Source: a virus (lineage: Duplodnaviria; Caudoviricetes). From it: a DNA stretch of 64,000 nt. Where the stretch lies: the IMG/VR virus record IMGVR_UViG_3300033555_000001, positions 128,001 through 192,000 of that record; one strand, given 5' to 3'. The translations under genes and the position numbers were made by a program. Below the pieces are notes generated by a model. The model was not told where the DNA came from. It made no database searches and worked only from the letters and a program-made list of their open reading frames with translations. Position 1 is the first letter of the stretch. Each line of letters opens with the position of its first letter. Positions 2,709-58,175 of this stretch are shown here, piece by piece.

Positions 2709-2738
2709 TCCTAGCCTCTAGCAGGTTCCTGAGACGTG

Positions 2739-2744
2739 TAAATA
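2739..2744 (+). promoter_or_regulatory. late promoter core TAAATA
   Basis: Intergenic GTAAATAG upstream of the GGAG RBS of ORF 2772; resembles the T4 late consensus TATAAATA. Confidence 0.6.
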
Positions 2745-2771
2745 GAGCATAGTTTATTTCTTGGAGTCTAC

Positions 2772-3260: not shown

Positions 3261-3269
3261 GGAAAAATT

Positions 3270-21912: not shown

Positions 21913-22002
21913 GTTGCCCTCGCGCAACGCAAGCGCTGACACGCGCCGCTTTGCTGTTTCTGCTTAGCGCAGTATAAAAATAAACCTTGTTTTCAGTCAT
22001 GG

Positions 22003-25000: not shown

Positions 25001-28000
25001 TTAGGTGTAGCTGGGCCATAGCCGGTTACTGACACGGTTCCTGGTTGCAGCACATACAGTGTTCGATCATTTATAATCTGCGCACCACTTAAATCAACAA
25101 GCTCATCAGCCACAAATGGCAGAGTTACCTGCAATGGGTAAATTATTGCTGCACCCCGTGCGTCAAACTCTGTAAATTCGTGAATGTAAGTTCCAACAAC
25201 TTGTGCCTCAAATGCTGTTTCACCATCAAGATCGTCAAGCGTAAACCACCGCCCTTCATCTCCTCGCAGGATAGTTTTAAAGCCAAAATTCTGCAAAGTG
25301 TTAGAGTCAAATTGGAACTTAGTAAACTGCTGCAGCGTATCGCTTACCAGTACTTTTAGCTCTGGGAATACGCGCGAGCGTGAATCACCATACTCGGCTA
25401 CTTTGTAGGCCCAGTACTCGTCAATCTTAGCATCTTCAAATCTGTCATTATTAAGAAAGGCGTCAATGGAAGAGTTAGTTCCCTTCATTTGCACCAGTCC
25501 ACGCCAGAAATTAAACTGCGTTCTCTCCGTGATGTCCAAGTCGTCCATGTATTTTTTAGGAGAAAAACCAAGCAGCGCCAGTGCGTGACGCGTTGAGGTT
25601 TCATCTTCAAACACATGATCTGCATCATAGTAATGCGCAATTTTATCCGTGCTGGCCTGCAAGTTTTGCTTGACCTCATCACCTACCAGATAGTGACCGC
25701 CAAACTCTGGACGCAGCGTTTGTGCTGCTTGGCGTCGGCCATTAAGCTTAATGGTGCTGATTCTGGCGCCACTAAACGGATCATAAATCAAACCCTCGTT
25801 TGTTGATGGCGAGGTTAGATTGTTGAACACAAACAAGTGCTCGTATTCATCAACCTGCGCGTGCACGCTGAACATTGGAATGCTGGATCCAATCTGCGAT
25901 TTACCGCGCGACCTTAAAATGGTAAGATCAGTAGTGTTGATTTTTGCGCCAAGCGTGTCAAATACACCAGGGTGACCGGTAATATCAAACAGCGAGCTGT
26001 CAAAAAACTTGCTTAACAGCCCAACATCTTGGTCTAGCCAAACGCGATCCATAAATGGATTAATGACATGACCCTGACCAAGCTGGATGCCGGCATAGAC
26101 GCGATCTACTAATTTTTCTACTTCGAGCTGCCAATTTCTAGTTCTGCCAGTTCCAGCATCAATGTTAGAGCTGAGCCCATCACTAAATCTCCAGCCTTCT
26201 TTTTCGCGCAGCTGTGCATAACCAAACAGGAAATTTAACACGTTCTGCAAGCCAGTAATTGTAAGCGGAAGCTGTGTCACCACCGGTGTGGACAATTCTG
26301 TGGTTGGTTGGTACCACGGCAGAGCGGTGTGTTCTCCGTTAAGAGCCGTAAAGGAAACTCGGTCTCCTGCTGTGTCAAAGGCGCTGAACGATACCTCTAA
26401 AAATCTGGCGTTATAACCATCAACTCTAAAGACCCAATCACTGGCGTCTCCAGCTGGTACAAAGCCTGATACAGTTGCGGCGTTGCTGGATCCAATTTGA
26501 ACCACTGAGACTCGCAGACCCTGCAGCCACAGGTCGCGTGCGTACGGCGACCGCTTAAACCGCAGTGCAAATGCGCTCTCTGGCAGGGATTCTACATCGT
26601 TAAAAACACGCAAATCATCAGTGCTGACTAGCCCACCTGCACGATAGCCAAGATTAACGTCCCAGCCACGGTAGGCCTGAATTGCATAGCCCTGCGTTGT
26701 ATCAATTGAGCCTTCACGCAGTGCATGCGAAAACACCTGCCCAAAACCTAAGATTTGGTTGTGCGTTGCTGGCTCAAATATTACAACTGGCAGGCCAGCA
26801 GTAACGGTCACGCTGAACTTGTCGCCAATTCTAAATGGTTTGCCGCCATCATTAATTACTGCGTCTGCAATGCTGAATCCTTGGCCAGACACTGTGTTAC
26901 CTGCTCCAACGCGCAGGTATCCAACTATTACGCCTTTAGCCGCGACGCTAAATGACTGCGCCCGATCAGCAGTATAACCGTCATGTGTAATACTAAATGT
27001 GGTTCCAGCGAGTCCAGTTACTGAGCTAAAGAGAAACTCAGGCGTGCGTGCAACAGCCGCTATTGGATCGCCGTGCAGCTTAAATCGGCGATGACCAGGC
27101 ACTGCCATATCAAAGCTGTCATACAGAATGCCATCTACTTCTACCCACTTAAATCCCCACAGGTGACCTAAAAATCCCATTGGGTCAGCTCTAAAGAGCG
27201 CACGAGCCAGCGAATATCTAAATTCAACTGACTTTGTCCACACTGTTTCAACAGGTGAACCCTCGCCAAATACATACGCGCGTGTTGGAGCAGGTGGCAG
27301 CGTGGTAGTAAGAGCGTTAGTACTGTACGCAAATCCTGAATTTACATAGGGTGGCAGCAGCATATCACGGTTAGTGTCTACCGATAATTTTAATCCTGGC
27401 CGAGCAGCCTGAATGTCTGTCCACATTGTGCTCTTCCACGAGCGGGCTTGCGTGAATACCACCGGGCTTGTATTTAAATTTGGTGCATCAGCGCGCAGTA
27501 CCCACTCAGTTCCAGCAAATGATTCGCCATCCGTAATTTGAATTACTAATTTTTCTACAAGCGCGGTACCGGCTCTGGCCCAACCATGTGACGCCACTGT
27601 CCACAGCCCGTTGTTTGCTGGGGATGCTTCGCTTACTAACAACACGGTTTGTCCAGCAGAGAGTTGGCGGCCGTCAACTACCGGTAAACCGCTCAGTATA
27701 GTATTGGTTTGAACCGCGCTAAACAGCACAACACGCGCAGTTTGACCGGTAATATATCCGTTTGCTGGTGCGTCAATCATGTCAAGCGTGATTTCGGCAG
27801 CATAGCTAGAATCCCAGGCTGGTGGTTTGGTTTCAAAACCCAACAGTCTCCATGGATCCAGATTTGGGCGAGCCGTTTTTAGGACGCCAGGAATAGTTTG
27901 TTGGTGCGCAGTAAGTGCGTTAAACCACCGGGCTGGCAAACCAGCAGAACTGTAGTTCCAAGTAAAAGCGTCAGTGTTTACATAGTCCGGTGCAGTTGGG

Positions 28001-30978
28001 TCATAGCCGTTTGCTGCTGCCCAGACTGCAAGTTCGCGTTGGAGCTGTGCGCGAAGTGGACCGGTGAGCGCAGTACTTATATCAGTTTCTGAAAAATAGT
28101 ACCGTGCTTCACTGTTAATTCCATTAAACAGCCGCGTCTCAATCTCCATGATCACGCTGTTTAGCAGGCTAGCCGGATTAATTGATATAAACGCGCCGGT
28201 TAAATTAGGTTGCGCAATCCACAGTGCACCGTCCCACATTGAAAGAATATTAGAACCGCGGTTGTACCAGTAATCGCCGATTGCGGTTGCGACTGGTGAG
28301 GCACGCTCATCGCTGATTACGTTGAACACGCGCAGGTCGCTGCCGTTAAACCAAAGCTCGCCCTTAAATGGTTGCGCTGGCGGGGTCTCAGTAAATGAGC
28401 CAACGGCCGGAGTAAATGTACCGTCTGATCGCTTTACTAGAGTTCCTGGCAGGAGCAACCGATCTCTGAACTCTGATGTAAACTGATAGAGCGGTGTGAG
28501 GTGGCCGTCATGGTTGCGCAACAGTGAAACACCAAGCTCGTTGTCAAAAATAACGGCGGGCTGAACCAGCGCACTTACGCCAAGCTGTGGCAGCGTTGCT
28601 GGAAATCCAATTACAGGTGATGTTGAATCATAGAGCACGGAGCGTACATCACCGTCTCTCAGCCGCTGGTTTAATAAAAAGTCCGTGAGCTCTGTTGCTG
28701 ATGGATTAGCAGTATTTGCGCTCAGAAAATTTACAAACTCTTGGGTGAATAAATCAGCAATTGAATTTGTAGCCGTTTCGTACTGACGCTGTGCCAGGTC
28801 AACAACAGACACTGGGGTCAAGTCACGCTGCATAAGCAATGAAGCTAACAAGTTTTGCTGTTCTGACCACAGCTTAATTGCGCCGCCAAATGCACGGTTT
28901 TGTGCGGTACCCGGTAATTGGTTAGTCAGTATGCTGCGGAAGTGCGAGTACAGGGTGCCTTCAGGAATTTCAGCGCCGTTATCAGCAGCCACGTTCGCAT
29001 AGAACATGCGCGGAACCTGCCACGCACCAATTCCTGCAACATCAGCCACTGGGCCGCCAAAAAAGTCAAATATGGCCTCGTCCTCATCTCGGTACACATA
29101 TCTGGCACTTTCAAAGGCGCCTACACTAATTGTAAAGACATCACCTGGGGTGAACGGGGTGGATCCTGCGGTGATGCTGACGTTAAGCTCGCCATTAGAA
29201 TACGGCACGCCAACTGCTGCCGTACTAAATTCGGCTGGCAGTACTTTAAGCTTAGATCCCTCAACAGCAAAGGTAGTTCCCGTAAGTGCAGTAAGAGTCC
29301 AAATTTGCTGCTGCGCAAATGGATTGCCCGCCGTTACTACTAGGCTGCCAGTTCCATCGCCCGCAAATTGCTGCTCTATTACTGCAGCGGTGCCATAACC
29401 TGGGTGCCAGATGGTATGCAGTGCGGCGTCTGTTGTTCGGTAGAACAGGAGAGAATTATCGCCCTCCGCTAATCCATGCGCAAACAAAAAGTCAGCGCTT
29501 TGATTTGAAGCCTGTGCCAGCCTGCGCTGTAGAGCCGGATCAATTGCTGCAGTAGGATCTTCAGCGTAAAAGAATATTGCTGAAACTTTACCAGCGTGCG
29601 TGCCGTTGTAGCGGTACAGGTTAAACAGTGGTGCTTGATTAAATTCAGTTTTGCTCTGTCTGTACGTGGTGCCGGTGGCCGATGGCGCACCATCTTTAAA
29701 TGTAGAGTTAAGTTCTACATTAGCTTCGTACTGGATAATTGGTCGCACGGCCTGAATGATTTTAGAGCGGTCTAGTCCAAGTCCGTCAAGCTCATCACGG
29801 TGATACCAAAAATTAGCCTCTTGCCAGTCGCTGGTATTGCTGGTAGTATCACCAGTAAGAACCCACTGCTGATTGGCTTCCGAAATATAAGTCTTGCTGG
29901 CATGGGCGTCAAACACACGTGCACCTGCAACAGCCGTTTCTCCGCTGTAATCTCCGGCCCGCGTAAAAGTGCCAGGCTGCACAGTGTAAATCCCGTTTTC
30001 TGCTGAGGCACCCTGGTTTTTCACAAGTACGCGATCACCAGCTTTAACTACAACGCCGCCGATTGTTTGATATGTGTCCAGCGAATCAATTGCGGTAATC
30101 TTGCCCTTTACTCCTGGGCCTACATTTGGTGTTACTGAGTGCACGCTAGAAATAAATGGAGCAGTAATGCTGAACTTATCGCCTGTAACAAATGATTCGT
30201 ACGAGGTAAGAACGCCGCTCTCACTATAAATTGGGTCTCTTACAACCGTAAACTCAAGCAGTACTTTACCGCCTGCCTGGTATTGCACATCAAGCGGGCC
30301 AGTTTCTGGCAGAGCGTATGACTGAACACGCTCAGCAGCCGAAATACCTGGGCCACTTGCAGTAATGGTAAAGTTTTGTGCGTCTAAGAAATCTATAACC
30401 CAAGTTTGCTGGTAAAATCCGGTGCCAGAGAGCACAATCTGGCCAGTGGTTGAGGTTACAACATTTAGTTTATCAGCACCAGAATTTTTTGGCGCTGCAA
30501 TAACATAGTACTCTGGAGAAAGAGTTGGATTCCATGAGAGTGCTGGAGCGCTTGGCAGCCCTTGAGCAACCCAGTAGTAATTAAAGAAGTTAGTAAAGCG
30601 TTCCAGATCAATTGGCGGAGAATAGTTGTTGCTCTGCGAGTACAGCCATGTAGACTGATTCGCCGAAATACCAAGCACTTCAGCCTTGCGAATTAAATCT
30701 TGAACGGTAAAAGAGTGAACTTCGGTACCAACTTTAAACGACAGCACAGGAATAAGCGCGTTAATGTCGCGTTCAGTACTTTGCTGTGGGATCTTTGGAG
30801 TTCTGTCGTCTACTGAAGCTGGCTTGCGGCCAACATAACCGTACAGTGGAACAGCCTCGTCACGCGTAAGAAATCTATTAAAAAGATTGTCTATGAGTGA
30901 AGTGAGCATAGGGTTCCTCAAATTCTGAGGAACAAGTGAAATAAGATCCTGGTGCGGAAGCGTGTAGTCTTTATTCAT
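22003..30978 (-). CDS. giant virion/baseplate protein (2,991 aa)
   Basis: Uninterrupted 9-kb ORF directly after the gp6-like gene and the endonuclease; contains fibre-type GDRVLVKNQ..ENGIY domains and GD.F.I modules. Confidence 0.8.
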   Translation of the reverse strand: MNKDYTLPHQDLISLVPQNLRNPMLTSLIDNLFNRFLTRDEAVPLYGYVGRKPASVDDRTPKIPQQSTERDINALIPVLSFKVGTEVHSFTVQDLIRKAEVLGISANQSTWLYSQSNNYSPPIDLERFTNFFNYYWVAQGLPSAPALSWNPTLSPEYYVIAAPKNSGADKLNVVTSTTGQIVLSGTGFYQQTWVIDFLDAQNFTITASGPGISAAERVQSYALPETGPLDVQYQAGGKVLLEFTVVRDPIYSESGVLTSYESFVTGDKFSITAPFISSVHSVTPNVGPGVKGKITAIDSLDTYQTIGGVVVKAGDRVLVKNQGASAENGIYTVQPGTFTRAGDYSGETAVAGARVFDAHASKTYISEANQQWVLTGDTTSNTSDWQEANFWYHRDELDGLGLDRSKIIQAVRPIIQYEANVELNSTFKDGAPSATGTTYRQSKTEFNQAPLFNLYRYNGTHAGKVSAIFFYAEDPTAAIDPALQRRLAQASNQSADFLFAHGLAEGDNSLLFYRTTDAALHTIWHPGYGTAAVIEQQFAGDGTGSLVVTAGNPFAQQQIWTLTALTGTTFAVEGSKLKVLPAEFSTAAVGVPYSNGELNVSITAGSTPFTPGDVFTISVGAFESARYVYRDEDEAIFDFFGGPVADVAGIGAWQVPRMFYANVAADNGAEIPEGTLYSHFRSILTNQLPGTAQNRAFGGAIKLWSEQQNLLASLLMQRDLTPVSVVDLAQRQYETATNSIADLFTQEFVNFLSANTANPSATELTDFLLNQRLRDGDVRSVLYDSTSPVIGFPATLPQLGVSALVQPAVIFDNELGVSLLRNHDGHLTPLYQFTSEFRDRLLLPGTLVKRSDGTFTPAVGSFTETPPAQPFKGELWFNGSDLRVFNVISDERASPVATAIGDYWYNRGSNILSMWDGALWIAQPNLTGAFISINPASLLNSVIMEIETRLFNGINSEARYYFSETDISTALTGPLRAQLQRELAVWAAANGYDPTAPDYVNTDAFTWNYSSAGLPARWFNALTAHQQTIPGVLKTARPNLDPWRLLGFETKPPAWDSSYAAEITLDMIDAPANGYITGQTARVVLFSAVQTNTILSGLPVVDGRQLSAGQTVLLVSEASPANNGLWTVASHGWARAGTALVEKLVIQITDGESFAGTEWVLRADAPNLNTSPVVFTQARSWKSTMWTDIQAARPGLKLSVDTNRDMLLPPYVNSGFAYSTNALTTTLPPAPTRAYVFGEGSPVETVWTKSVEFRYSLARALFRADPMGFLGHLWGFKWVEVDGILYDSFDMAVPGHRRFKLHGDPIAAVARTPEFLFSSVTGLAGTTFSITHDGYTADRAQSFSVAAKGVIVGYLRVGAGNTVSGQGFSIADAVINDGGKPFRIGDKFSVTVTAGLPVVIFEPATHNQILGFGQVFSHALREGSIDTTQGYAIQAYRGWDVNLGYRAGGLVSTDDLRVFNDVESLPESAFALRFKRSPYARDLWLQGLRVSVVQIGSSNAATVSGFVPAGDASDWVFRVDGYNARFLEVSFSAFDTAGDRVSFTALNGEHTALPWYQPTTELSTPVVTQLPLTITGLQNVLNFLFGYAQLREKEGWRFSDGLSSNIDAGTGRTRNWQLEVEKLVDRVYAGIQLGQGHVINPFMDRVWLDQDVGLLSKFFDSSLFDITGHPGVFDTLGAKINTTDLTILRSRGKSQIGSSIPMFSVHAQVDEYEHLFVFNNLTSPSTNEGLIYDPFSGARISTIKLNGRRQAAQTLRPEFGGHYLVGDEVKQNLQASTDKIAHYYDADHVFEDETSTRHALALLGFSPKKYMDDLDITERTQFNFWRGLVQMKGTNSSIDAFLNNDRFEDAKIDEYWAYKVAEYGDSRSRVFPELKVLVSDTLQQFTKFQFDSNTLQNFGFKTILRGDEGRWFTLDDLDGETAFEAQVVGTYIHEFTEFDARGAAIIYPLQVTLPFVADELVDLSGAQIINDRTLYVLQPGTVSVTGYGPATPKFNPIKLFNYVDAELIEEIPQWHPLIGQHTPTALESINIISDIDPARYNVSTQVVGNSNFDPLRTWGTKELGRVWWDTTNLEYTPYSDDKIYGSIDERLSRWGTLADFSTVDVVEWIESRVPPTEYDALALVDSGNADLDVLTRADGQVYGAKTYSRTRIWQTRPVAWSHAGVAIQAAHPAFNGSFFSNLTLVEKEETLTAVLESSTFKILGISAGMRLGAWQQDDSHTRPLSEFLVLDGFSKFISLNNPDLDQPLGVVSIESVGNTDVVGELLFIKEPTQRVQERNDAGEPINMWTVSTYLRAVEVSSGKSTVQLVNSSRVTGVLAKPAVAATRGYQAINFGSTKTEASKTGLRLSTDPATVTVYSLVITLDGTALTVTFTGDEAQTFGELISVINSQFPGAPAKLDQNRIIIISGTSGADSTVSIGNSALFADLNDFDLLGTSIAGENLIPAVQETINDELQVFADQVLVVPLLEFGLSISVRVTENNVYGPEILVDTIVDALRSSVELLDAVQVLTLVPLSDPSGLVGDGLILSNDPTDPANVINNGVGWRAWSVPSQDELDADTKVPNNSWLPYPGAFVSVEPTIELIKLATNNAALSLNDGTSPGAYQTTWGAWAELESTVLRTTATTMGFAGLAVPAGTTKDLISVYVNGAAQLSGTFTLVGTALTVQSVAFGSEVVVIIRPYAPLQSELDFDPEVNDVLLIQSQYKIDYQYVAVPVRDSEGQITRTKYFFWVKNRSTQARRKKLSIRAVTQLLITGPSNYLTFQNFGGTGSASNPYSYDAITISGLSYVVTKDDTFKLRFTRNFTLRDDSQELDLKNTHVEWALIRPGQRTRIPEALWDKMVNTACGADAAGNILPSPRRASYDERNGTRTQFGFGSDQVLAPSELVKSTLLFTVLNTALVDDSGAFQMPDYMTFLDFSKSDSLFSSAENTRNTMSRIWNTAKPSQINELFFAVLNDICAAQYEMTDIFKTSRLSAYSIKVVRSAPIAPSYE

Positions 30979-31816: not shown

Positions 31817-34800
31817 TCATCGCATTTGCCTGATAACCGTTGGAGTAAGAGCTTCAACAATTTCAATGTCGGCCAACTGCGCTGCTGATTGCAAGATTTC
31901 ATCAAAGCCGCACTCAATAGTAAACATGTCGCCAAATGAGTTTGTGCTGTACAGTGGAACCAGGACGGCACTTGCTATTTCAGTTGGCAAGCGGGTGTGC
32001 ATGAGCGACAACAGTTCGGTAACATAGAATGTTTCGCCAAAGTCCCAGTTCGGAATGTCAAAATACGTGTTGATGACATTTAACAGCTCCTCTTTAACGC
32101 GCTCATTTGTCAGTGTGCTGCCCGGGGCGCGCACAACTTTAAACTTAGCACGGAATTGTGGCTCTGCAAGCGCACCAAACAAGAGCCGTAATTTACCGGA
32201 GTGCAGTACAACTGTGTCACTCAACATTTTGTTTTTCAACAAATAAGAATAAGAGTTTCGCAGATCGAGTGGCGTTGGCGGTGTGGGTGCTGAGAGTGAT
32301 ATTCCTCGCAAAAAGCTAATCACTGAATCATAGTACCCCTGCGTAATCACGTACGCATCATGAATGTTGGTTACGGATGGGTCAATGATATTTGTAAATG
32401 GCGCAAAGTGCTGCCACATAAAATCAAGTCCTCGACCATCGCTGTTCTTTGCTGTCTGGCGGCGGCCAAAATTGCCAGCAAAGAACGCGTCTGGCCCAGC
32501 AAGACTAAATGCCTGAATGGCCAGTGTTTTATCCGCAAGAGTAACGCCGGGATTATCAAGCCTAAAGTACTCATAGCTTTGCCCGTCTACAGCACCAGCA
32601 AAACTTTCAAACTGCAGCAGGCGATCAGGAATTAAATCACCGCTTGAATCTTCCTGCAGTAAATCAGTTGGTACTACTTGTAGTTTGTGAAAGTCAACTA
32701 CACCATTACTGTCTTTGACCGCACCAGCCACATCGTACACCTGAGAAGATGCCAGTACTTCACCGCGATAGTCTTTATTTGATCGCAAAATCTTAATGCT
32801 GTCAAACACGCGCTTTTTAGTATCGCTGTCAAGTAACTGATCTGCCTCATTAAACCAGAATTTAGTGGTGCGAGATTGAACAGTAAGCGCCAGATCTCGG
32901 TGGTGAACTTCATAACCAATTACGTTATTAGTCGGTTGCTGCCGCAGTTTTTTAACAAAGATTAACCAGCTGTGCTGCGCAGAACCGGCTGAGTCTTGAG
33001 CAAACAAGAATTCATCGCCGTCGTTAATGCCGCTCGCGTAGTAGGGTAACTGCGAGACTCCCAGAATTTCCCACCAGCCGTTTAGGTTAATTACCCGGGT
33101 CTCGTTAAACGCATCACCACCTCGCACAACGCTGGCAAGATCTACGCTCAAGTCATCTAAATTTTGGAGTACAAATGCATCGCCCGGTTCAAACGCAATA
33201 TTCCCAGCGCTTACTGTAAAAAACTCGGTGCCATCTGCGCTGAGCTCATACGGGTCACCAACTGCGCCGGTCTTAAATGTGCCGCGCAGATTTGACCGAA
33301 CATTAAGGGTAACACCGTCAGCACTGACTTCAATAGTAAACACCTCGGCGCTGAGTACTTCACTTGGCCGGTTATGCACAGTAATTGTGCCACTACCAAC
33401 ACCGGACAGGGTGCGGTGGTAGCGCAGCGCGAAATAGTCTTGCTCTGCAATTGGCTGTAAGCCTGATCCAATATCGCCCGGTGGAAATTTATTAATTCCA
33501 TCCACCGTGCGTGGCACTGCAGCAGCGTAGATCCGTGAATCGTCTTTTGGAAATAAATCTGGGTCTGGAATTCGCGCGAAGACTTGAGAGTTAGGGCCCT
33601 CAACAAATGCCAGCGGTTCACCATACCAGTGCCGGTCGATCAGCGCTTGCATGGCAGTTTTTTCTTTTAGTGAACCATCACCGGTTGAGCCAGCAATCAG
33701 CTTTACAAATGAGTTGCCGGAATAGTGCAGGCCCGCGCGGTTGTCTTCAATAAATGACCGGCGTGGCGGGCTGACAACGCCAGCTGTGGCTGGATCAGTT
33801 GCTGACAGGTGCAACATGGCGTTAATGACACCATTAGTGTTTAACAGCGGTTCAATAACCGAGTCTATCAGCGCCTGACCTGAAAGAGAAGTAGTCAAGG
33901 ACGTGAGGCTCAAGTCGTACTGCATAACAAGATCGTCACCAAATATTTTTACGTTCTCATAAGTTCCGCTTGGATCATTCCAGTCAATGTGCTTTGGCTG
34001 ACCAGCGAATGTACGATTTACCGCCTTAAGTCGCAGGATTGACGGGTCTTTTAGCGGAAAGGTATTGTAGTCCTGACCGTTAACCATGCGGTTTTGCGCG
34101 TAATACGTGGCTGGTGCGGACTGACGCACGTGCTCAATTGTCTCGGAGCCTGCGCCATTTTGCAGAGTGGTTGTGAGGCTAAAGGTGACTGTTGCGGTCT
34201 CGGTGTTACCGGTTGATGAGATGTAAGTAAAGGTGAGAGGCTCATTAACTACCTTGCTCTTTTGCACGACAAGCGCACGGTTAGCGCTCTGCCTCATCCA
34301 AAAACGGAACAGCCCCTGTGGAGCCTCTGCAAAATCTCCGTCTCCAAACACAATTGCAATTTGGTCGTTCTCAAGAGTGTCAACCTCGTACTTTGATCGA
34401 GTGCTGCGATCATCGTTAAAAATCAGGTTTTGCTCGTTAATTGTTTCAACCTGTTTCCAGCGCTGCTCAATACCGCCTTGACCATTAATCTTTTGTACCC
34501 ACACGTCCGTGTGATTAACGTTGTCTGGTAAAAATTCTAGTCTGCGGTTAGGCTGCTTATCAAGAATAGAATAATCAATGCGAGTCAGTGTACCCTGTTT
34601 TACATAGGCCAAAAAGCCTGTGTAGTCTGAGCCATCACCAATACCGTCATTTGCGTAGATAATTGACAGCGCTGAGGCCAAATCAGGCTCGCGTTCCAGC
34701 GGGCCGTTTTCGTCAATGTCGGCTGAGACAACTTCCATTGGAAAGCTGTCCAGCCCAGTTGAAGCAGAGAATGGATATACCCCATTAGTAAATGAATTTT

Positions 34801-35359
34801 GCGTGGAGTTCAGCGCGTACAAGTCCATTACTACGTCACCAACTTGAAACGTCTTTTGCGGCTGACCAAAGCGCGTAGTAAGCACACGGTTTGCTATCAG
34901 CAAAAACTGCTCTTTCCAGTTCGCGTTGTTTGGATCATTCCAGCCAACAACTAAACCAGCAATGTCAGTACCACGCGAATCAAACGCGCGTTCGGTTGTA
35001 CTGATGCTTGTGAACTTTACAAGTCCACGTACCGGAATATTTCGTGTTGCCTTATAGGAAATAAGTTTTGCCAGGCGCAGGATAGACTGTTTACGTTGCG
35101 CGGTAGTAATAAAATTCTCATGCGAGACCATGTCAACACGGTACGCAAGTTGCTCGGCCACGTATGCAAAAATCTCAAGCATAGCAATAAGTTCGCTGGA
35201 CTCAAGCAAATCGTTAAAGACTTCGCTGTAGTAAATGCGCAAGTAATCAACGAGCGACTGTTTGATCGTGTCAGCGTCGTACGATGTAAAGTTTACCTTG
35301 GTAAACCCCTCGTAAATTTTGTCCCAGCTTTCTGCACTATTACTATTTCTGAATGCCAT
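31817..35359 (-). CDS. gp6: baseplate wedge subunit (gp6-like, extended)
   Basis: YDADTIKQSL..YL...FND..ESS...E..AY...YR.D...ENF.TA.R..S..RLAK N-terminus; RMVNGQDY and G.ETIE motifs. Confidence 0.85.
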   Translation of the reverse strand: MAFRNSNSAESWDKIYEGFTKVNFTSYDADTIKQSLVDYLRIYYSEVFNDLLESSELIAMLEIFAYVAEQLAYRVDMVSHENFITTAQRKQSILRLAKLISYKATRNIPVRGLVKFTSISTTERAFDSRGTDIAGLVVGWNDPNNANWKEQFLLIANRVLTTRFGQPQKTFQVGDVVMDLYALNSTQNSFTNGVYPFSASTGLDSFPMEVVSADIDENGPLEREPDLASALSIIYANDGIGDGSDYTGFLAYVKQGTLTRIDYSILDKQPNRRLEFLPDNVNHTDVWVQKINGQGGIEQRWKQVETINEQNLIFNDDRSTRSKYEVDTLENDQIAIVFGDGDFAEAPQGLFRFWMRQSANRALVVQKSKVVNEPLTFTYISSTGNTETATVTFSLTTTLQNGAGSETIEHVRQSAPATYYAQNRMVNGQDYNTFPLKDPSILRLKAVNRTFAGQPKHIDWNDPSGTYENVKIFGDDLVMQYDLSLTSLTTSLSGQALIDSVIEPLLNTNGVINAMLHLSATDPATAGVVSPPRRSFIEDNRAGLHYSGNSFVKLIAGSTGDGSLKEKTAMQALIDRHWYGEPLAFVEGPNSQVFARIPDPDLFPKDDSRIYAAAVPRTVDGINKFPPGDIGSGLQPIAEQDYFALRYHRTLSGVGSGTITVHNRPSEVLSAEVFTIEVSADGVTLNVRSNLRGTFKTGAVGDPYELSADGTEFFTVSAGNIAFEPGDAFVLQNLDDLSVDLASVVRGGDAFNETRVINLNGWWEILGVSQLPYYASGINDGDEFLFAQDSAGSAQHSWLIFVKKLRQQPTNNVIGYEVHHRDLALTVQSRTTKFWFNEADQLLDSDTKKRVFDSIKILRSNKDYRGEVLASSQVYDVAGAVKDSNGVVDFHKLQVVPTDLLQEDSSGDLIPDRLLQFESFAGAVDGQSYEYFRLDNPGVTLADKTLAIQAFSLAGPDAFFAGNFGRRQTAKNSDGRGLDFMWQHFAPFTNIIDPSVTNIHDAYVITQGYYDSVISFLRGISLSAPTPPTPLDLRNSYSYLLKNKMLSDTVVLHSGKLRLLFGALAEPQFRAKFKVVRAPGSTLTNERVKEELLNVINTYFDIPNWDFGETFYVTELLSLMHTRLPTEIASAVLVPLYSTNSFGDMFTIECGFDEILQSAAQLADIEIVEALTPTVIRQMR

Positions 35360-45471: not shown

Positions 45472-47136
45472 TTAAAGCTCTAATTTAAATTTTAAATTAC
45501 CACTGTCTTCACAGCGTAACCAACCATCAGCTCTCATATTCTCTAATTCTGTTTTACTGGCATCAAAATTCTTTACTATTCCAGGCAGCGCGGATTTCAT
45601 AGCTTGATATCGCAACAATCTAACTGGCCCTTTAACGTAAAAATAGTTAGGCCGTGTTGTCTTAATCAGTTTAAACCCTGCTCTGAGGTACGCATCACCC
45701 ACTGAAATTCTGCGATCTGCATAGGTGATTAAAGTCCGGTACGACTTTTTTCTGAGCTCTGCTAGAATTCGCTGAAATCCTCCGGTGACCGAAACTCCTG
45801 CACTGGCAAATCTAATTAGCTCTAATTCTTCTTTACCAAACCTAGCATGTCCAAAGCTAGCCGCTTGAACAAGTTTGTCATTATCAAACAGCCCAATAGT
45901 AAAACTTGCCTGCGCACTTCCTTGCAAGTGCCACTGCTTAAAAAATTCAGGACAGCCGCCCTTAAGCACTTTTACTTTTAGTTTTCTAGCCATTAGTCTA
46001 GGCAGCAATCCTAACTTAGCAAGTATAATGTTGTGCACCACAAGAGGCTTTTCATCTATTTCAAAATCCCAGAAGTGCAGTAACTGAATACCCGCAGCTT
46101 CAGCTAATTCAGTTTTCTTAATTAACGGTTGGGATACAGATTGGTCGTGATGCCAGTACACTCCATTTACTTCTATTGCTAATTGCTTAGCCGGAATATA
46201 AATGTCTAGTTCTAACGGTGAAATAACATTTCTGTCTTCTACCAAATACGAGAGATCTGTGTTAGATACCATTGCTTCAACGACTGTCTGAACTCCGCTC
46301 TTTCTTCTACAATACGGACAGAGAATACCTCTGTGTAGTCTGCCAGCTGCTTCAAATTGTTTGCCGCACTCTAGATGCTGCCACATGTATTTGGTTTCGT
46401 AACCGGACCAATCAGCTTTTGTGAACACTGGTATAACACTGCAGTCAGTTTTAATCTTCTGCATCTGCTCGTCAAAAGACCCGTCTAGAAAGCGCAATTT
46501 TGCTCGGTTGCTTAATTGTTTTTTCACTTCAGCAGTTTTAGTATAGTGAACCTCACCGTACTTAAGTAAAGTAGTTGATTCTGTTTTTATTCTAGTTTCT
46601 TGTTTTTCTGTTACCGATCGCCGTGCATGAGTAGCTGAAATTTGTTTCTTAATAACATCCGAATTGGCTGGATTTTCAGTACCGTATCTGAGCATATTTG
46701 TCGTAGCAGCTTTTTCTCGAACTTTAGGTGCGGACCATGATGCTTCATATCCGTACACTGCTAAACTTGTTTCTCTAATTTTAGCCCTGACAAGTTCAGA
46801 ACCCGCAGCATGTTCGGTTCCATACTTACTAAGATTGGTTTCTGATCGTTTTGATTTTGTGCTCTTTGAGACTGCGGCGCACTTAGGACTGCAGAATTTT
46901 TGAAGTTTGCCGTTAGCGTTTAAATTTAACGACTGACCACAGGAACAGTTTGGCCTGATTGAAATATCATTCTTCAATGCGTACATTTTTTCGGCAAGAG
47001 TAATCCACCCACCCAGATCCGCAGACATTAAATCAGCTTTAAAGATTTTTCCATTTGCGGAATTTAGCAGGCCAGTCATGAACTTACCGTCACGGTAAGC
47101 AAGATCCTGAAAGCGAGCTAGGAATAATTCAAACAT
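45472..47136 (-). mobile_element. Hef-like homing endonuclease (Zn ribbons + TNL.KYG repeats + Vsr/DUF559-type PD-(D/E)XK + C-terminal GNAT-like domain)
   Basis: CSCG..FCSPKC; ETNLSKYG/TNMLRYG repeats; ELDIYIP..AIEVNG.YWH; ITYADRR..G..Y...GF; visibly AT-rich; sits just downstream of the capsid gene. Confidence 0.75.
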
Positions 47137-47315: not shown

Positions 47316-48587
47316 TTACGAGAACGAAACGTTTGTGATCCTGATCCGTGCGTAGTAATCCGCGCTGTTACCAAGCGATGTACCAGCGTTGGTGAACGTA
47401 GCTTTTCCGTACCGGGTCATGAGGCTCACTGCTGGCATGAACGTGTTAGCGTCCATAACAACACCGGTGCTCATCAGTGGAACGTATGGGCAGTAAAAGT
47501 AACCTGTATCCAACTCTGACGAACCGCCTTTGTAGCCGATCAAGATGTCTTCGCCAGTTGTACCAGTAGCCGAACCAGCGCCGCCAGTCAATGTCCAAGC
47601 ATCATTCAGACCCCAGTTGTACGAGTAAACGCGCATCTGGCCATTCAACATACCAACAAGCTTGTTACCGGTAGGATCTTGGAACTGGCCAGAGACCGCT
47701 GGTGCAAACACGGACTTTGAAGCAGATTGCAAGATCGAAGTAACCAAGTGCGAACCAACCAACCAGTTACCAGGTCCACGACGCGTTTTAGCGCCGATTT
47801 CGTTTGCAAGCTTGTTAACCAAAATACCAAGTTCAGCGTAACGATCACCAATGAAGTTCGGCGAGAAACCAGCTGGTGGAGTTGCGAAGTCGAATGTTCC
47901 AACAGTTGCGGCCAGGGCCAACAGGTCTGTCAAGATTTCATTGTCGATTTCGTGAGCGATCTGAGCTGACAAGGCTGCTGTCAATTCATTTTCCAGATCA
48001 AGACCGTGCTGCGAAGTCATGTCCTGAGCTGCTTCCATTGTCCAACGAGCCTGCAACTTACGGGAACCTGCAGTGATTGTTTGCTTCAAGACGCTCAAAC
48101 GCAACGCACGACCGCCGTAGCCTTCGTAATCGCTTGTATTCGCGCCAACACCAGTACTTGTGTTAGCTGTCAGTGCTGGCGGATAACCTGCCGTACCAAC
48201 GTTTGCTGTCGAATAGAAACGCTTCATCTTCGAGTTGTTTGCAAAAACTTCATCACCAGCAGCGATGTCGTTTGAAGGATCGCCGTTTGTGTCGACGGAC
48301 TCAGCAAACGCAAAGCGCAAGCTGTATACCAAGCCAACTGGACCGCTCATTGGCTGTACGCCAACTAGATCGGTTGCAATAGTACCTGGCAAAATACGAC
48401 GAATCATCGGGATAACGATTTTTTGGAAGCCGTCAACAGCGTTAGCCGTTGTTGCAGTTGCGCTTGCGGTTTCCATCATGTACTGCTTCTGATTCTCCAG
48501 AAGAGTAGACACGATTTGTTTCTTCGAACCAGTAAGGCCTTCTAGCAAGGCGGCTTTAGTTTCGATCCAGTTTTCCGTTAGTAACAT
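47316..48587 (-). CDS. gp23: major capsid protein (gp23-like)
   Basis: LVGVQPMSGPVGLVY.LR, TITAGSRKL.A.WT.EAAQD, EIDNEI, GYFYCPYVPL and LMTRYG motifs. Confidence 0.95.
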   Translation of the reverse strand: MLLTENWIETKAALLEGLTGSKKQIVSTLLENQKQYMMETASATATTANAVDGFQKIVIPMIRRILPGTIATDLVGVQPMSGPVGLVYSLRFAFAESVDTNGDPSNDIAAGDEVFANNSKMKRFYSTANVGTAGYPPALTANTSTGVGANTSDYEGYGGRALRLSVLKQTITAGSRKLQARWTMEAAQDMTSQHGLDLENELTAALSAQIAHEIDNEILTDLLALAATVGTFDFATPPAGFSPNFIGDRYAELGILVNKLANEIGAKTRRGPGNWLVGSHLVTSILQSASKSVFAPAVSGQFQDPTGNKLVGMLNGQMRVYSYNWGLNDAWTLTGGAGSATGTTGEDILIGYKGGSSELDTGYFYCPYVPLMSTGVVMDANTFMPAVSLMTRYGKATFTNAGTSLGNSADYYARIRITNVSFS

Positions 48588-52856: not shown

Positions 52857-55775
52857 TTAGCCTCGTCTGAGGAGTTGATTAGTAAACTGTTCTGAATCAG
52901 CAAATCTAACTGCAGGACGCATGGCTAGCAGCATTGCGTCCGTGGCGTCTGCGTTTCGGGTTTCAACTGCTAGGTTATCACGCATGACTTGCAACATGCT
53001 TGTTAACACTATCATCATATCAGTATTTGTAGGTGTACCAACTGCAGGAACCTCTTTTGCTGCGACTGGTGGCGGTTCAATTGTATTTACCGTAGCCGGC
53101 ACAACAGCTTTTGGTATCTGAACCTGCGGCTGGCCCATGATTGCCTGTGCATCTCCGATTAGGGTTGATGCGCTGAGTGCACCGGCTTGGGCACTTGAAA
53201 ACTTTACTTGTGCCGCTGTTGCCTTAGTTGTAGCTTCAGTTGTTGCTTTTTCTGATTCAGCGGCGGCTTGTTGAGCGCTTTTACCCATTTTCTTAAGTGT
53301 TTTAGAACTATCGTCCCACAGCATACCCATAGCATTCATGTTTTCTGTTGAAGACTTTTCAAACGCCTCACCGCCGCCCTTTAAGTCTTTTACAAGCTGC
53401 GAGTCGTTGCTTAAAAACAAACCAAGCACGCTACCAAGGCCACTAAAGAGCCCGCCAAAAAAATGCTTAACCATTGCGTTTGCGCCCGCAACAAAAACGT
53501 CAAACTTGTTCTGCAACCAGCCGCCTGCGCCGGATCCAAAGACATAACCAAAAACGTCAATTAAAAAATTAGGAATTGCCGTTAAAAAGGCCGTAACAAC
53601 TCCGCCTACTCTGTTAAAAAAGCCACCGCTTGGATTTAATGCAATCGCCATTTCACCCGTAATTGCCTCTTTTATACCATCTATAATTCCAGCTATAGGC
53701 CCAAAAGCTTTGGCCGCGACCTTTAACCCGCCTATAATAGTGCCAATGCCGCCGGTTAGAGCGCCCGCGGTGCCGGCAAACACACTTCTGATTGCCGCTA
53801 GTGCGCCGTTAGAAGAGTTAATGGCCTGCACCCCGCTAATAGACGATTGCACCGCTCGAGGAATACCCGTAAGACTCGTGTAGAGGCCACTGGCGCCAGA
53901 TTTAATAGCCGCCAGTGGATTTAATAGCGTAGAAAGAACTGAACCGGTACCTTGTGCTACTTTAGCCAGCGCTCCAGTGGCTCCAGCGGCGCCACTGGCA
54001 CCCTGTGCGCCGGTTGCTAGTGCTCCAGCGGCTCCTTTGATACCTCCGCCGGTCAATAGAGATCCCATTAACTTGACTATTGGTCCACGGAATAGGGTAA
54101 GCAGTACGCCGCCAACCGCAGCTCCAATAGCAGGCACAATACTTTTTTGTATGCCCTCAGTCCATGCGGTTAACTTACCAACAGCTCGACCAAAAGAACC
54201 TACTGACTTACCAAAATCAGCGTTAGCCGTAGCGGGGCCGCTGTCAGCTGCAAGTGCCGCGGCATCGCTGGCCTTCCCAACTTGGCCAAGCTTTGTGGCA
54301 TCAATTTTTGCCCTCAAGTCTTCAATCGCGTGCTGCATGCCTAAATTACCGTTATTTGCCGCCTCTGCATACAGCGCATTTATTTTCTTAGAAAATTCGC
54401 CCTTGCGAGCGACCAATTCCTGGCTTTCTGCTCCAGTAATTGCAGTACCTTTAAGGCCAAGTTCGGTTATTCGCTGCGCATTTCCAGTATCGCCAGTAAG
54501 TGCGCCAAGGTTTAGGATAGCAGCGCGCTGGTCTAATCTTTCTGTAACTGTTGCTCCGCGTGCGGCAATAAGCGCATTACCAAGCGCTGTTGCTGCCTCG
54601 CCGGTTAAACCTAACCTGTTTCCAAGTGTTCTGATCTGTATCAATTCCTGCATTCGCGCCTGACGCTGAGCTGGTGCCAAGCCCAACATCTCACGCTGCA
54701 CCTGTTCATTCTTGCCAAGGCCGTCTACAACTTTTGCAAACTCATCAGTAGTAAGCAGAGTAGAAGCACGCAGATCTGAGAACGTTTTAATTTGTGCGTC
54801 TACAGCGCTACCAAGATCGCTGTTAAGAATACCAAATTCAGTACCGGTAGAGGCCAGTGCAGCCTGGAATGTTCGCGCTTCAGCTCCAAAGACGCCAATT
54901 GTTGCCAGCTGGCCATCGGCGGCCGAAATTAATTTATCGTATTCATTCAGACTGCCCTGACGCGCGGCGGTGCTGGAGTTCTCACGCACCATTTCGGTGT
55001 ACTCTTTTAACGACATGCCGGCCCTGGCCGCAAAGAACGACAGATCCGCCAAGTTACCGGCCGAGCCCAAGCCAAGGCGGGCGAGCGTCAAGTAATCAGC
55101 GGTTAATTTTGTTGTTATGTCAATAAGGCCTGAAAATACGGTAACAACTCCACCCGCAACAGCGCCAAGGCCTGTAAATCGTCCCAACATTTTGTCAACA
55201 GTGGTGCCAAACGCTGTAGTAGTACTGTCTAATCGCGTAGGCACTGGCCTGATCGCGCTATCTGCACCAGCCCGGCGGCGCATGCGCGCCTGTAAAATTC
55301 GGGCGGCTTCCTCGGTCGGCGCGTTAGAAGCGGCTCGCGGCGTTGCTGCTGCAGCTGCACCGTTTAAACCGAGTCCTTTTAATCTTGTGGCTGCTCCGCG
55401 CAACACGCCCATGAGCGAGTCAATTAAACCACTGCCGGTACCGCCGGATGTTGGTGTAGCCCCACCCTTTGCCGCGGTAAGTGTACCTTTAAATTTGGCC
55501 ATTTCAGAGGCAAGGGAGCCAAATCCGGTGGTTGTGCGGCCAACTGACGTGTTTAAGCTTACTAAGCTTTTATTCAGCCCGAGCAGTGCGTCATTTGTAT
55601 TCTTAGCTGTTAAGGCAATAGCTGTAAAAACTCGGGTGCCGGCGCGAATAGCTCCAGCGTTTTTTGCCTGCTCTGCTTTGTCTGCTGAAGATGGAAGCCG
55701 CCCGCCCGAGCCCGCCATTGCATTGCTGAGCAGTGTTTTGATATTTTCTAGCGTTTTAAGGATTTGTTCATCCAT
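52857..55775 (-). CDS. tape-measure-like protein
   Basis: 972 aa, Ala/Gly-rich and helical with hydrophobic segments; adjacent (divergent) to the gp26/gp51-like chaperone genes. Confidence 0.6.
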   Translation of the reverse strand: MDEQILKTLENIKTLLSNAMAGSGGRLPSSADKAEQAKNAGAIRAGTRVFTAIALTAKNTNDALLGLNKSLVSLNTSVGRTTTGFGSLASEMAKFKGTLTAAKGGATPTSGGTGSGLIDSLMGVLRGAATRLKGLGLNGAAAAATPRAASNAPTEEAARILQARMRRRAGADSAIRPVPTRLDSTTTAFGTTVDKMLGRFTGLGAVAGGVVTVFSGLIDITTKLTADYLTLARLGLGSAGNLADLSFFAARAGMSLKEYTEMVRENSSTAARQGSLNEYDKLISAADGQLATIGVFGAEARTFQAALASTGTEFGILNSDLGSAVDAQIKTFSDLRASTLLTTDEFAKVVDGLGKNEQVQREMLGLAPAQRQARMQELIQIRTLGNRLGLTGEAATALGNALIAARGATVTERLDQRAAILNLGALTGDTGNAQRITELGLKGTAITGAESQELVARKGEFSKKINALYAEAANNGNLGMQHAIEDLRAKIDATKLGQVGKASDAAALAADSGPATANADFGKSVGSFGRAVGKLTAWTEGIQKSIVPAIGAAVGGVLLTLFRGPIVKLMGSLLTGGGIKGAAGALATGAQGASGAAGATGALAKVAQGTGSVLSTLLNPLAAIKSGASGLYTSLTGIPRAVQSSISGVQAINSSNGALAAIRSVFAGTAGALTGGIGTIIGGLKVAAKAFGPIAGIIDGIKEAITGEMAIALNPSGGFFNRVGGVVTAFLTAIPNFLIDVFGYVFGSGAGGWLQNKFDVFVAGANAMVKHFFGGLFSGLGSVLGLFLSNDSQLVKDLKGGGEAFEKSSTENMNAMGMLWDDSSKTLKKMGKSAQQAAAESEKATTEATTKATAAQVKFSSAQAGALSASTLIGDAQAIMGQPQVQIPKAVVPATVNTIEPPPVAAKEVPAVGTPTNTDMMIVLTSMLQVMRDNLAVETRNADATDAMLLAMRPAVRFADSEQFTNQLLRRG

Positions 55776-55809: not shown

Positions 55810-55828
55810 TAAATAGGTGATCTATTTA
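55810..55828. promoter_or_regulatory. back-to-back late promoter cores (TAAATA on + at 55810..55815; on - at 55823..55828)
   Basis: Both lie in the 72-nt gap between divergent late genes. Confidence 0.6.
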
Positions 55829-55847
55829 GATAAGAGGACTACGTCAC

Positions 55848-56636
55848 ATGTCTGACACTCAAAACCCGCTGCTGGCCAAGATTAAATTGCCAGGCCGCAC
55901 ATTCCAGCTCCCATCCCGTGGTGCAATGTACAACAATGGTGAATTAGCAGCAGATTCGCCAACCGGCGAAATTCAAGTATATCCGCTAAGCGCTCTTGCT
56001 GAAATAAATTTAAAGAACCCTGATTTGCTGTTTAACGGCCAGGCATTGGTTGCTGTGCTGAATGAGTGCGTTCCAGCAATTAAAAAGCCGCTAGACATGT
56101 TTGGGCGAGATGTTGACGCGCTGCTGTTCTTCTTGCGACTAGCAACGTACGGCCAAGAGTATCGGATTGAAGTAAAGCACGATTGCGCAGAGGCTAAACA
56201 ACACGCCTATGCGGTTAATTTAGAAGAAGTAATCCAGCGCATGGTATTTCTTGACCCAACAGTTATTGCCAGTAAACAGACGGTGGTGCTGTCAAATGGC
56301 CAGACCGTTTATACTCGCCCAATGAAGTTCAGCGATATTATTGCGCTCTTTCATAAGAGCGGCAGCAAAAAAGAACTTACCCCAGATGACATCAAAGAAC
56401 TTGCTGTTACTAATCTTATGTCAATGATCGAGCGAGTTGAGGATATTACTAACGCAGCTATGATTGAAGAGTGGGTGCGCACGCTTACGACTCCAATGTT
56501 TAATCGAATTACTGAGGCTGCAAACGAGCTCAACAGTTGGGGTCCTGAGCAAGTGGTAGAAATCAAGTGCAAAGACTGCCACGGAACAATGCGCGTAGAG
56601 CTGCCGCTGAATCCTGTATCTTTTTTCACCGAATGA
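55848..56636 (+). CDS. gp26: baseplate hub/tail assembly protein (gp26-like)
   Basis: LPSRG..Y, E...LKNPDLL.NG, D.DALL..LR.A.YG, CxHxC and CKDC Zn-like pairs, ends PVSFF. Confidence 0.8.
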   Translation: MSDTQNPLLAKIKLPGRTFQLPSRGAMYNNGELAADSPTGEIQVYPLSALAEINLKNPDLLFNGQALVAVLNECVPAIKKPLDMFGRDVDALLFFLRLATYGQEYRIEVKHDCAEAKQHAYAVNLEEVIQRMVFLDPTVIASKQTVVLSNGQTVYTRPMKFSDIIALFHKSGSKKELTPDDIKELAVTNLMSMIERVEDITNAAMIEEWVRTLTTPMFNRITEAANELNSWGPEQVVEIKCKDCHGTMRVELPLNPVSFFTE

Positions 56637-56664
56637 TTTTGGATGGCGATCGCACCAAAATCAT
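56621..56664 (+). promoter_or_regulatory. candidate programmed -1 ribosomal frameshift signal
   Basis: In-frame slippery heptamer T TTT TTC (56621..56627), 5-nt spacer, perfect stem ATGATTTTGG (56633..56642) / CCAAAATCAT (56655..56664). Confidence 0.7.
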
Positions 56665-56863
56665 AAACATGATCGATAGAATGTCCCTGGATGTCAAGGC
56701 GCTTATTCAGTGCGCACTTGATATTGCAACACATACTAGAGGCGGCGTGCCGTACGAGACCGCACTTAACATGTCAGCTTTTGAGCGTGATCTGGCAATT
56801 GAGGGAATTAATAAGAGATTAGAGGCTGCGTCTAAGTCTCCATTTGGTGGCATGATGATGTAA
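56633..56863 (+). CDS. gp51: gp51-like assembly protein (76 aa), in the -1 frame of the gp26-like gene
   Basis: ATGA overlap; GG..YE.A.NMS.FER....I pattern resembles gp51; no clear Shine-Dalgarno. Confidence 0.65.
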   Translation: MILDGDRTKIINMIDRMSLDVKALIQCALDIATHTRGGVPYETALNMSAFERDLAIEGINKRLEAASKSPFGGMMM

Positions 56864-56864
56864 T

Positions 56865-56892
56865 AAAAGGGGATCTTATAAGATCCCCTTTT
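56865..56892. terminator. bidirectional intrinsic terminator
   Basis: Palindrome AAAAGGGGATCTT-AT-AAGATCCCCTTTT between convergent genes. Confidence 0.85.
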
Positions 56893-56924: not shown

Positions 56925-58175
56925 CTACGCCGTAAGACGAAGGTTTAATTTCTTCATGATTTCTGGCAGCCGATCCAAATACTGCTGAGGCACGCCATCT
57001 AGCCCATCATGCACCATAATTCCATGCTGATCAACAGCTTCCCAGAGCGCATATCTGGCGCGGCGTTCCCACGCAAAGTACCCACTGAATACCGATTTTA
57101 TATTTTGCCTGTTAGGCGCACGCTTGAGCAGTCCAAGACAGGCGTATTTTCTGGCAGCCGAGAACTGCGCAGCAATTCGCTGCAGGCGAGCACCAATTAA
57201 CATTAACTCAGACGTAGTAGCGTGTGGCGCAGCTTTGAGAATAATATCAGCGGTGAGTGAAAAGCCCGATCCGTTGGTTAGTAGTGTTGGGGAAATCTTT
57301 GAACCATTAGCCAGGCTCATGAGCACTTGCTTGATGGTACCGCGGTATTGATCAGTATACGGGTGCTGCAAAATCTGTAAACACAGCTCTTCCCTAAACG
57401 ATTCTTTATCTTCAAGCAGCCGCAACAAATCTGGAAACATCAGCCGCAGCGCGTTAGATCGATCGTGAAATGCTACTTCCAAGTGCTCCATTAAAAACTG
57501 CACATACGCAGAGTCAAGATCAATTCCCTGACCAAAGAGCATTTCTCTGAGCCAACCAGGCCAGGTTTCAACCGCGGCGATTGGCCACACTGAAGTATCT
57601 CGTAGCTGCAATTTACCACTGCGTGCAAAATAAAAGTTTATTTCTGGTGGCTGCCGTAATAACCAAATAAGCTGTGGGATAATTTCTGGCCGGCCGGTTG
57701 ATAACAGCCGGTTAATTATTACTGACTGATTGAGATTGGGCTGCAGATAGACTTTTGAAATAGCCGCATTTTCCGGCCTGACTCCTGGCTCGTAGTGCAG
57801 CTCAGTGGTTACGGCGTTAACCAGTTCTAAATCTGTGCGACTCAGTGTGCGAGGCACAAGAGTGCTCAGCTCCATGTTCTCTTCGCCAAGATTAAACCCA
57901 AGCTGCTTTATGGTGAAAAAGTAATCAAGGGCCGGTCGGTAATCGCGTACTTGATCCCTGAGATCCATTAGCCGCACTTGTACTTCACAGAAGCCCCGCG
58001 GCTTGCCGGATTTAATTGCTCCACGATACAAGTTCGCAAGCCATAAGATTAAGTCCTGGCGAGCCTCAATTTTTCCACGATGCAGTCGCTGCAGATCAGG
58101 CCAAAACTGCGTCCAGTGCAGGGGGTGATTGTGTGGCAAAGCGCCGGTGATGTTTAGCTTGTATGGACGTGTCAT
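56925..58175 (-). CDS. stand-alone family-A/T7-type polymerase-like protein
   Basis: Motif A-like GIDLDSAYVQFL, motif B-like RGTIKQVLMSLANG, motif C-like IMVHDGLDG, in the correct order. Confidence 0.55.
   Translation of the reverse strand: MTRPYKLNITGALPHNHPLHWTQFWPDLQRLHRGKIEARQDLILWLANLYRGAIKSGKPRGFCEVQVRLMDLRDQVRDYRPALDYFFTIKQLGFNLGEENMELSTLVPRTLSRTDLELVNAVTTELHYEPGVRPENAAISKVYLQPNLNQSVIINRLLSTGRPEIIPQLIWLLRQPPEINFYFARSGKLQLRDTSVWPIAAVETWPGWLREMLFGQGIDLDSAYVQFLMEHLEVAFHDRSNALRLMFPDLLRLLEDKESFREELCLQILQHPYTDQYRGTIKQVLMSLANGSKISPTLLTNGSGFSLTADIILKAAPHATTSELMLIGARLQRIAAQFSAARKYACLGLLKRAPNRQNIKSVFSGYFAWERRARYALWEAVDQHGIMVHDGLDGVPQQYLDRLPEIMKKLNLRLTA

Follow-up and report, generated by a model that had tools for sequence, protein, structure and literature searches.

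The gp26-like baseplate-hub assembly gene of a large tailed phage probably yields both a short and a long protein by programmed -1 ribosomal frameshifting close to its 3' end, a reading to which we assign a probability of roughly 85%. The gene lies in a window of 64,000 nucleotides (positions 128,001 to 192,000 of the IMG/VR record IMGVR_UViG_3300033555_000001), which belongs to a viral record of 310,728 bp (87% complete); the window DNA occurs in an ice metagenome, its probable source. The frameshift had been put forward in an original prediction made from the letters of the window, and it is now strongly supported by the conservation of the slippery heptamer, by relatives in which the shifted frame lacks a start codon and by a covarying stem downstream. 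Frameshifting in tail assembly chaperone genes is a hallmark of long-tailed phages; to our knowledge, the T4-type phages are regarded as being without it, and no published report of a frameshift in gp26-like genes was found in the open-access literature.

In the mechanism that we infer, most ribosomes would read TTT TTC ACC GAA and terminate at the TGA that follows, which would produce the short form of 262 aa, and a fraction of them would move back by one base on U_UUU_UUC with tRNA-Phe in the P and A sites, helped by a hairpin that starts 5 nt downstream and would cause a pause during the slip. After the slip, translation would continue with CAC CGA AUG and onwards for 78 more codons in all, giving the long form of 338 aa. 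The short form would then correspond to T4 gp26 and the long form to T4 gp51, both of them hub-assembly chaperones, with one gene in place of two.

The gp26-like gene, its probable slip site and its surroundings

The 262-aa product matches the Pfam family PF12322 (T4_baseplate) with 38.6 bits (cut-off 24.5; E 1.2e-9) and phrog_150, annotated 'baseplate hub', with E 1.2e-10, and the AF2 model matched phage baseplate hub proteins in BFVD with E values down to 2e-17. No other PF12322 match was found in the 310,728-bp genome record. Used as a nucleotide query against a phage collection, the locus gave no match; tblastn retrieved relatives in jumbo myophages, namely RsoM2USA (46.5% identity), XacN1, Xoo-sp13, PA5oct, Atu_ph07 and the GAP32/CBB group. 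The coordinates of the features discussed here are collected in Table 1.

Table 1. Features of the gp26-like locus and its neighbour (positions in the window)
Feature	Position	Strand	Basis
Candidate tail tape measure protein, 972 aa, divergent from the gp26-like gene	52857..55775	-	ORF list
TAAATA late-promoter-like core, upstream of the gp26-like gene	55810-55815	+	sequence reading
Shine-Dalgarno-like AAGAGGA, 9 nt 5' of the gp26-like ATG	55832..55838	+	sequence reading
gp26-like baseplate-hub assembly gene, 0 frame (short form, 262 aa)	55848..56636	+	ORF list, Pfam, PHROG
Domain with a tail-assembly-chaperone-like fold, residues about 138-231	56259..56540	+	VIA-align
CxxC (C241, C244) of a probable zinc ribbon	56568..56579	+	invariant alignment columns
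Slippery heptamer T_TTT_TTC on the conserved Phe-Phe	56621..56627	+	sequence reading, conservation
-1-frame extension, 78 codons and stop	56627..56863	+	ORF list, alignment
5-nt spacer ACCGA	56628..56632	+	sequence reading
Hairpin, presumed frameshift stimulator, sequestering the ATG at 56633	56633..56664	+	fold, covariation
TGA stop of the 0 frame, sharing bases with the -1-frame ATG at 56633 (ATGA)	56634..56636	+	
Extension residues 39-72, homologous to the tail at the C terminus of T4 gp51	56741..56842	+	hhalign
Intrinsic-terminator-like hairpin and T run, directly 3' of the extension, closing the transcription unit	56865..56892	+	

The 262-aa ORF ends ...PVSFFTE, encoded by TCT TTT TTC ACC GAA TGA, and the heptamer stands in the X_XXY_YYZ register, in frame and two codons 5' of the TGA. 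An open -1 frame runs from 56567 to its stop at 56861-56863, and the predicted slip product joins 260 residues of the 0 frame to the 78 of the extension (...PVSFF/HRMILDG...). The extension is present in a single copy in the genome. The ATG of the -1 ORF encodes extension residue 3 and lies inside the stem, and no Shine-Dalgarno motif was seen in the sequence before it. The original prediction had described exactly this arrangement, an in-frame T_TTT_TTC, a 5-nt spacer, a perfect 10-bp stem that buries the ATG and an open -1 frame, and its product sizes of 262 and 338 aa were reproduced from the ORF reading.

The stem is formed by ATGATTTTGG (56633-56642), whose first three bases are the ATG, pairing with CCAAAATCAT (56655-56664) in 10 perfect pairs around a 12-nt loop. 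Taken alone the hairpin is unremarkable (MFE -13 kcal/mol, z -1.39; 15 of 200 shuffled sequences fold equally well), and its weight therefore comes from conservation and covariation in relatives. Among the 15 nearest relatives of the window sequence, 92% of the stem cells are paired and six of the ten base pairs have changed on both sides in a compensatory manner, values that none of 500 shuffles reached and that compare with pairing in 18-50% of cells for slid controls. The compensated stem anticipated in the original prediction is thus found in homologues, and its 5-nt distance from the heptamer lies within the 5-9 nt expected of a stimulatory RNA structure. Other clades have different stem sequences that start 2-6 nt 3' of the heptamer, some of them long-range (XacN1, clades B and D2), and no consensus downstream stem emerged for clade C.

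The combination of a bacterial-type heptamer with a hairpin after a short spacer is shared with E. coli dnaX (tau/gamma) and with IS3/IS911. In contrast to these systems, no upstream Shine-Dalgarno-like stimulator was seen, and whereas the shifted frame truncates the protein in dnaX, here it would extend it.

The gene encodes a conserved cysteine cluster, in which the CxxC motif of Table 1 stands just 5' of the slip site; C113 is likewise invariant in the family alignments and C74 nearly so, which suggests a zinc ribbon that would bind metal. A CxxC is also present in T4 gp26 (CPECG) and T4 gp51 (CPKCK).

On its 5' side the gp26-like gene is adjoined by the divergent 972-aa ORF, which is rich in Ala and Gly, has the portal gene on its other side and matched no family in Pfam or PHROG; a tblastn search with it gave only one weak relative, in RsoM2USA. 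In the ESM Atlas features its named nearest clusters are TMP_3, PhageMin_Tail and TMP, with scores of 0.93-0.94, and these features are the basis for considering the ORF a tape measure gene, as a lead only. In PA5oct, MS identified the product of the gene at the corresponding position as a virion structural protein. Past the 972-aa ORF follow the genes for the portal, the prohead protease and the major head protein. A 554-aa homing/HNH endonuclease (45472-47136, - strand; phrog_3339, E 1e-98) adjoins the major head protein gene (47316-48587) and may be a mobile element inserted into the head module. The region on the tail and fibre side holds a 2,991-aa ORF (22003-30978, - strand) and further long ORFs of 1,381 aa (17797-21942) and 1,180 aa (31817-35359). 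Directly downstream of the gp26-like locus, on the opposite strand, lies a 416-aa ORF (56925-58175, - strand) with no Pfam or PHROG match.

Conservation in relatives and competing accounts of the frame break

The comparison set consisted of 80 IMG/VR loci, retrieved by an alignment-based search, and 11 isolate records, from which 74 distinct related sequences were compared, with identities of about 13-75% overall and of about 23-75% to the window in the gp26-like part. T_TTT_TTY is kept on the same two Phe codons in 72 of these 74, against an expectation of about 0.23 per sequence calculated from the codon usage of the same genes. The retention of the heptamer is far above chance, and the original prediction's expectation of a conserved TTTTTT(C/T) in homologues was borne out. 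TTT encodes the first Phe in 72 of the 74 sequences, compared with a TTT share of 55% among the Phe codons elsewhere in these genes, and the codon 5' of this Phe ends in T in all 74 (background 41%). That codon occurs in eight kinds (TCT, AGT, AAT, ACT, GCT, GTT, GAT and CAT), and since TCT and AGT both encode Ser and belong to different codon families, selection acts on the base and not on the residue. The exceptions are three loci, representing two distinct sequences, with T_TTC_TTC, which still holds the shift-prone tetramer U_UUC (PMC4066793). In E. coli, U_UUU_UUY is among the efficient -1 motifs, heptamers of the type H_HH.U_UU.Y are among the most efficient ones, and U_UUU_UUC, which is found in IS elements, is shift-prone (PMC4066793).

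Two loci of the set stand out in their layout. The slip site of RsoM2USA carries a run of nine T (locus L001, 3267-3275), and the IMG/VR record 3300025015_000009 (locus L066) encodes two tandem gp26-like paralogues (2001-3055 and about 3070-4135), both with T_TTT_TTC and a -1 extension of 75-76 codons.

From the heptamer onwards, the -1 frame is open for 59-90 codons in every locus, and in an alignment of 34 diverse loci the extension aligns almost without gaps from its first residue. In 23 of the 74 loci the first 10 codons of the -1 ORF contain no ATG, GTG or TTG, and in eight loci a start codon is absent from the first 20; PA5oct has none in any of its 75 -1 codons. In RsoM2USA no start occurs before codon 48 of 82, yet the sequence resembles that of the window from the slip site onwards. 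Over extension residues 7-20, it is the third codon positions of the -1 frame that vary most, in the near clade as in the distant one, which indicates that this stretch is translated in the -1 frame. In such relatives the -1 ORF would depend on the upstream frame; the window itself has an ATG at residue 3.

The small ORF that begins there is the starting point for the best of the competing accounts, by which the -1 frame is an ordinary small gene of 76 aa translated from the ATG at 56633 through termination-reinitiation at the ATGA, with the hairpin serving the coupling and the T run merely encoding Phe-Phe. Stop-start overlaps are common in phages, the ATGA is present in the window and in 38 other distinct loci, and a shortened separate ORF is indeed listed in the records of XacN1, Xoo-sp13, RAS14, Atu_ph07 and OLIVR5. 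However, these ORFs as annotated cover less than the conserved region, the loci without an early start offer no codon near the slip site from which such a gene could begin, and PA5oct offers none at all, the ATG at 56633 is not preceded by a Shine-Dalgarno motif, and the constant NNT codon and the TTT of the first Phe would be left unexplained. We therefore regard reinitiation as an unlikely replacement for programmed frameshifting. With the ATG overlapping the stop, it could also yield a free 76-aa peptide, and in the window phage it may coexist with frameshifting.

Transcriptional slippage, in which RNA polymerase would add one U in the T run, is more improbable still. Homopolymer runs can cause such slippage, and the nine-T run of RsoM2USA would suit it, but polymerase slippage usually needs runs of about 8-9 and most loci, the window included, have only six T followed by C; moreover, the locus bears marks of ribosomal frameshifting in its exact X_XXY_YYZ register, in a Z base conserved as C or T and in the covarying stem that begins 5 nt downstream. 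Finally, a homopolymer sequencing error or a recent mutation that split a 338-aa gene, conceivable in that homopolymer indels are common in assemblies and the window comes from a metagenome, is effectively refuted by conservation, since the reading frame breaks at one and the same position in 74 distinct sequences, which come from independent isolates and from metagenomes.

A joined CDS is annotated in none of the nine heptamer-bearing isolate records: five list a shortened ORF, and in RsoM2USA, PA5oct, S-WAM1 and LPCS28 the extension is unannotated. In RsoM2USA a 1.4-kb stretch without an annotated gene lies 3' of the hub gene, and the 75-codon extension of PA5oct occupies positions 3310-3537 of locus L086.

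Relation to T4 gp26 and gp51

T4 gp51 matches PF12322 over its residues 1-201 (E 4e-52) and continues with a tail of about 48 aa. Its sequence and that of T4 gp26 are about 20% identical, and the two genes are adjacent and divergently transcribed. T4 gp51 is itself a paralogue of gp26 that carries an additional tail. Both T4 proteins are listed as chaperones of hub assembly, and the finished particle lacks gp51 (PMC3004832). The PA5oct record carries an MS note on the neighbouring gene and none on the hub gene, a pattern that is weakly consistent with a hub protein absent from the virion.

The extension was compared with the tail of gp51 by hhalign. A profile of 34 extensions aligned to a profile of 26 gp51 tails over 34 columns with a probability of 86.7%, E 4.3e-6 and a score of 32.7, compared with a mean of 9.8 (sd 2.1, maximum 16.4) for 100 column-shuffled controls and 11.4 for the reversed control. 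The homology is limited to the C-terminal half of the extension. Against single sequences the same method gave less: the extension matched T4 gp51 weakly (E 0.047) in the expected region and T4 gp26 not at all, and the fused alignment matched the single gp51 in the CxxC motif only. The window's extension had no direct match to phrog_634, 'baseplate hub assembly catalyst'. This family was reached from relatives that have the same heptamer followed by a -1 ORF of 59-67 codons, the cyanophage S-WAM1 (E 4e-31), the Agrobacterium phage OLIVR5 (3e-8) and the Cronobacter phage LPCS28 (6e-11); the extension of S-WAM1 also matched the T4 gp51 tail in BLASTP (E 9e-6).

Since gp51 consists of PF12322 plus a tail and the extension matches that tail, the long form would be equivalent to gp51 and the short form to gp26. 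Like T4 gp26, the short form is a PF12322 protein that ends just after the conserved Phe-Phe, and like T4 gp51, the predicted long form carries the homologous tail; in contrast to the two paralogous genes 26 and 51 of T4, the window phage has a single gene, and its extension exceeds the gp51 tail by about 27 aa, with an N-terminal helix that has no counterpart in gp51. The original prediction had called the locus a fusion of gp26-like and gp51-like proteins, which holds for the gp26-like body and has to be narrowed for the downstream ORF, whose C-terminal half alone, and not the whole, resembles gp51 in its tail.

The distribution of the slip site among the records compared reads as complementary, with either one gene that has the site or two genes that do not. 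The heptamer is absent from T4 and from the Acinetobacter phage vB_AbaM_3014, both of which encode gp51 in a gene of its own. In a complete 368-kb relative, as in the window phage, the single PF12322 gene has the heptamer. T4 gene 26 ends ...KEFFELL with the codons GAG TTC TTT GAG and thus has no slippery site; gene 25 lies directly 3' of it. The notion that the terminal Phe-Phe of gp26-like proteins reflects the slippery codons can accordingly be part of its explanation and not the sole cause, given that T4 gp26 keeps Phe-Phe with the non-slippery TTC TTT. The T4 record further annotates an internal, in-frame product 26' of 95 aa, which shares the stop of gene 26 (locus L085, 2303-2590), so that two products, made by a different route, are already annotated for this T4 gene.

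Fold of the shared body and the tail-chaperone analogy

Tail chaperone frameshifting of the same kind is known from P2 E/E+E' and Mu gp41/42. In the lambda pair gpG/gpGT, as in the window gene, a shared N-terminal body is followed by a -1 shift near the 3' end at an X_XXY_YYZ site, and a conserved -1 frameshift has been described in the tail chaperone genes of long-tailed phages (Xu, Hendrix and Duda, 2004, Mol Cell 16:11, as cited in PMC9024508). Like G/GT, the window gene is a tail-assembly gene beside a tape measure gene, if the 972-aa ORF is one. In contrast to the lambda proteins, those of the window are larger (262/338 aa) and have a cysteine cluster, and no sequence similarity to the G/GT families was detected.

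A structural comparison gives modest support to the analogy. When the model was compared by VIA-align with 48,161 PDB representatives, rank 1 was 3klu YqbN (Z 6.0, 83 aa, 3.4 A), rank 2 was 2ob9, the HK97 gp13 chaperone (Z 5.9, 77 aa, 3.0 A), and rank 16 was 3fgx Rbstp2171 (Z 4.3), values that fall in the range below Z 8 in which a match is a possible 'common arrangement'. All three align to residues 138-239, and YqbN, HK97 gp13 and Rbstp2171 are tail assembly chaperones (PMC9603447). That three chaperone structures should fall on one modelled domain is unlikely to be chance despite the middling Z. The comparison with tail assembly chaperones by Foldseek, which the original prediction had proposed, brought up weak chaperone rows, among them 2ob9 (TM 0.54 by target, E 4.3) and FluMu gp41, and no significant match in the PDB or AlphaFold Swiss-Prot; in a profile search of PDB sequences the sole row, an intein, was insignificant.

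For the long form, AF2 gave a confident model (pLDDT 89.7) in which the extension is predicted to form two long helices (model residues 270-299 and 312-331). It was built from an alignment of the pieced product of the window and translations of the IMG/VR loci with unpaired rows, so that the placement of the extension against the body is uninformative. A complex prediction for the short form with residues 1-730 of the candidate tape measure protein provided neither support nor counter-evidence.

The original prediction had further proposed that gp26 and gp51 are the G/GT-type tape-measure chaperone pair of this lineage. The fold lends this modest support and the gp26-like gene adjoins the candidate tape measure gene; the orientation does not agree, in that a G/GT-type gene lies directly upstream of the tape measure gene and is co-oriented with it, whereas the gp26-like gene is divergent from the candidate tape measure gene. 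By analogy with lambda G/GT, the body common to both forms would hold an intermediate in tape-measure or hub assembly, a second partner would be brought in by the helical extension, and the slip frequency would set the ratio of the two forms. We give this model for the short and long forms about even odds. A more far-reaching version, in which the gp26 and gp51 proteins are very remote homologues of G/GT, the frameshift module is universal in long-tailed phages and T4 with its two genes is derived, is tentative and falls somewhat short of an even chance.

Taken together, the comparisons correct the annotation of isolate phages in which the extension is missing or listed as a truncated small ORF, and the records of RsoM2USA and PA5oct need to be re-annotated. 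A conserved slip site that turns a gp26-like into a gp51-like protein provides a concrete and testable model for both, according to which the gp26 and gp51 types would represent a single chaperone produced in a short and a long version at a fixed ratio. If the remote homology to G/GT holds true, the module of a chaperone with its -1 frameshift would span the T4 superfamily and the jumbo phages, and T4 and its close relatives would have replaced the frameshift by the paralogous genes 26 and 51.
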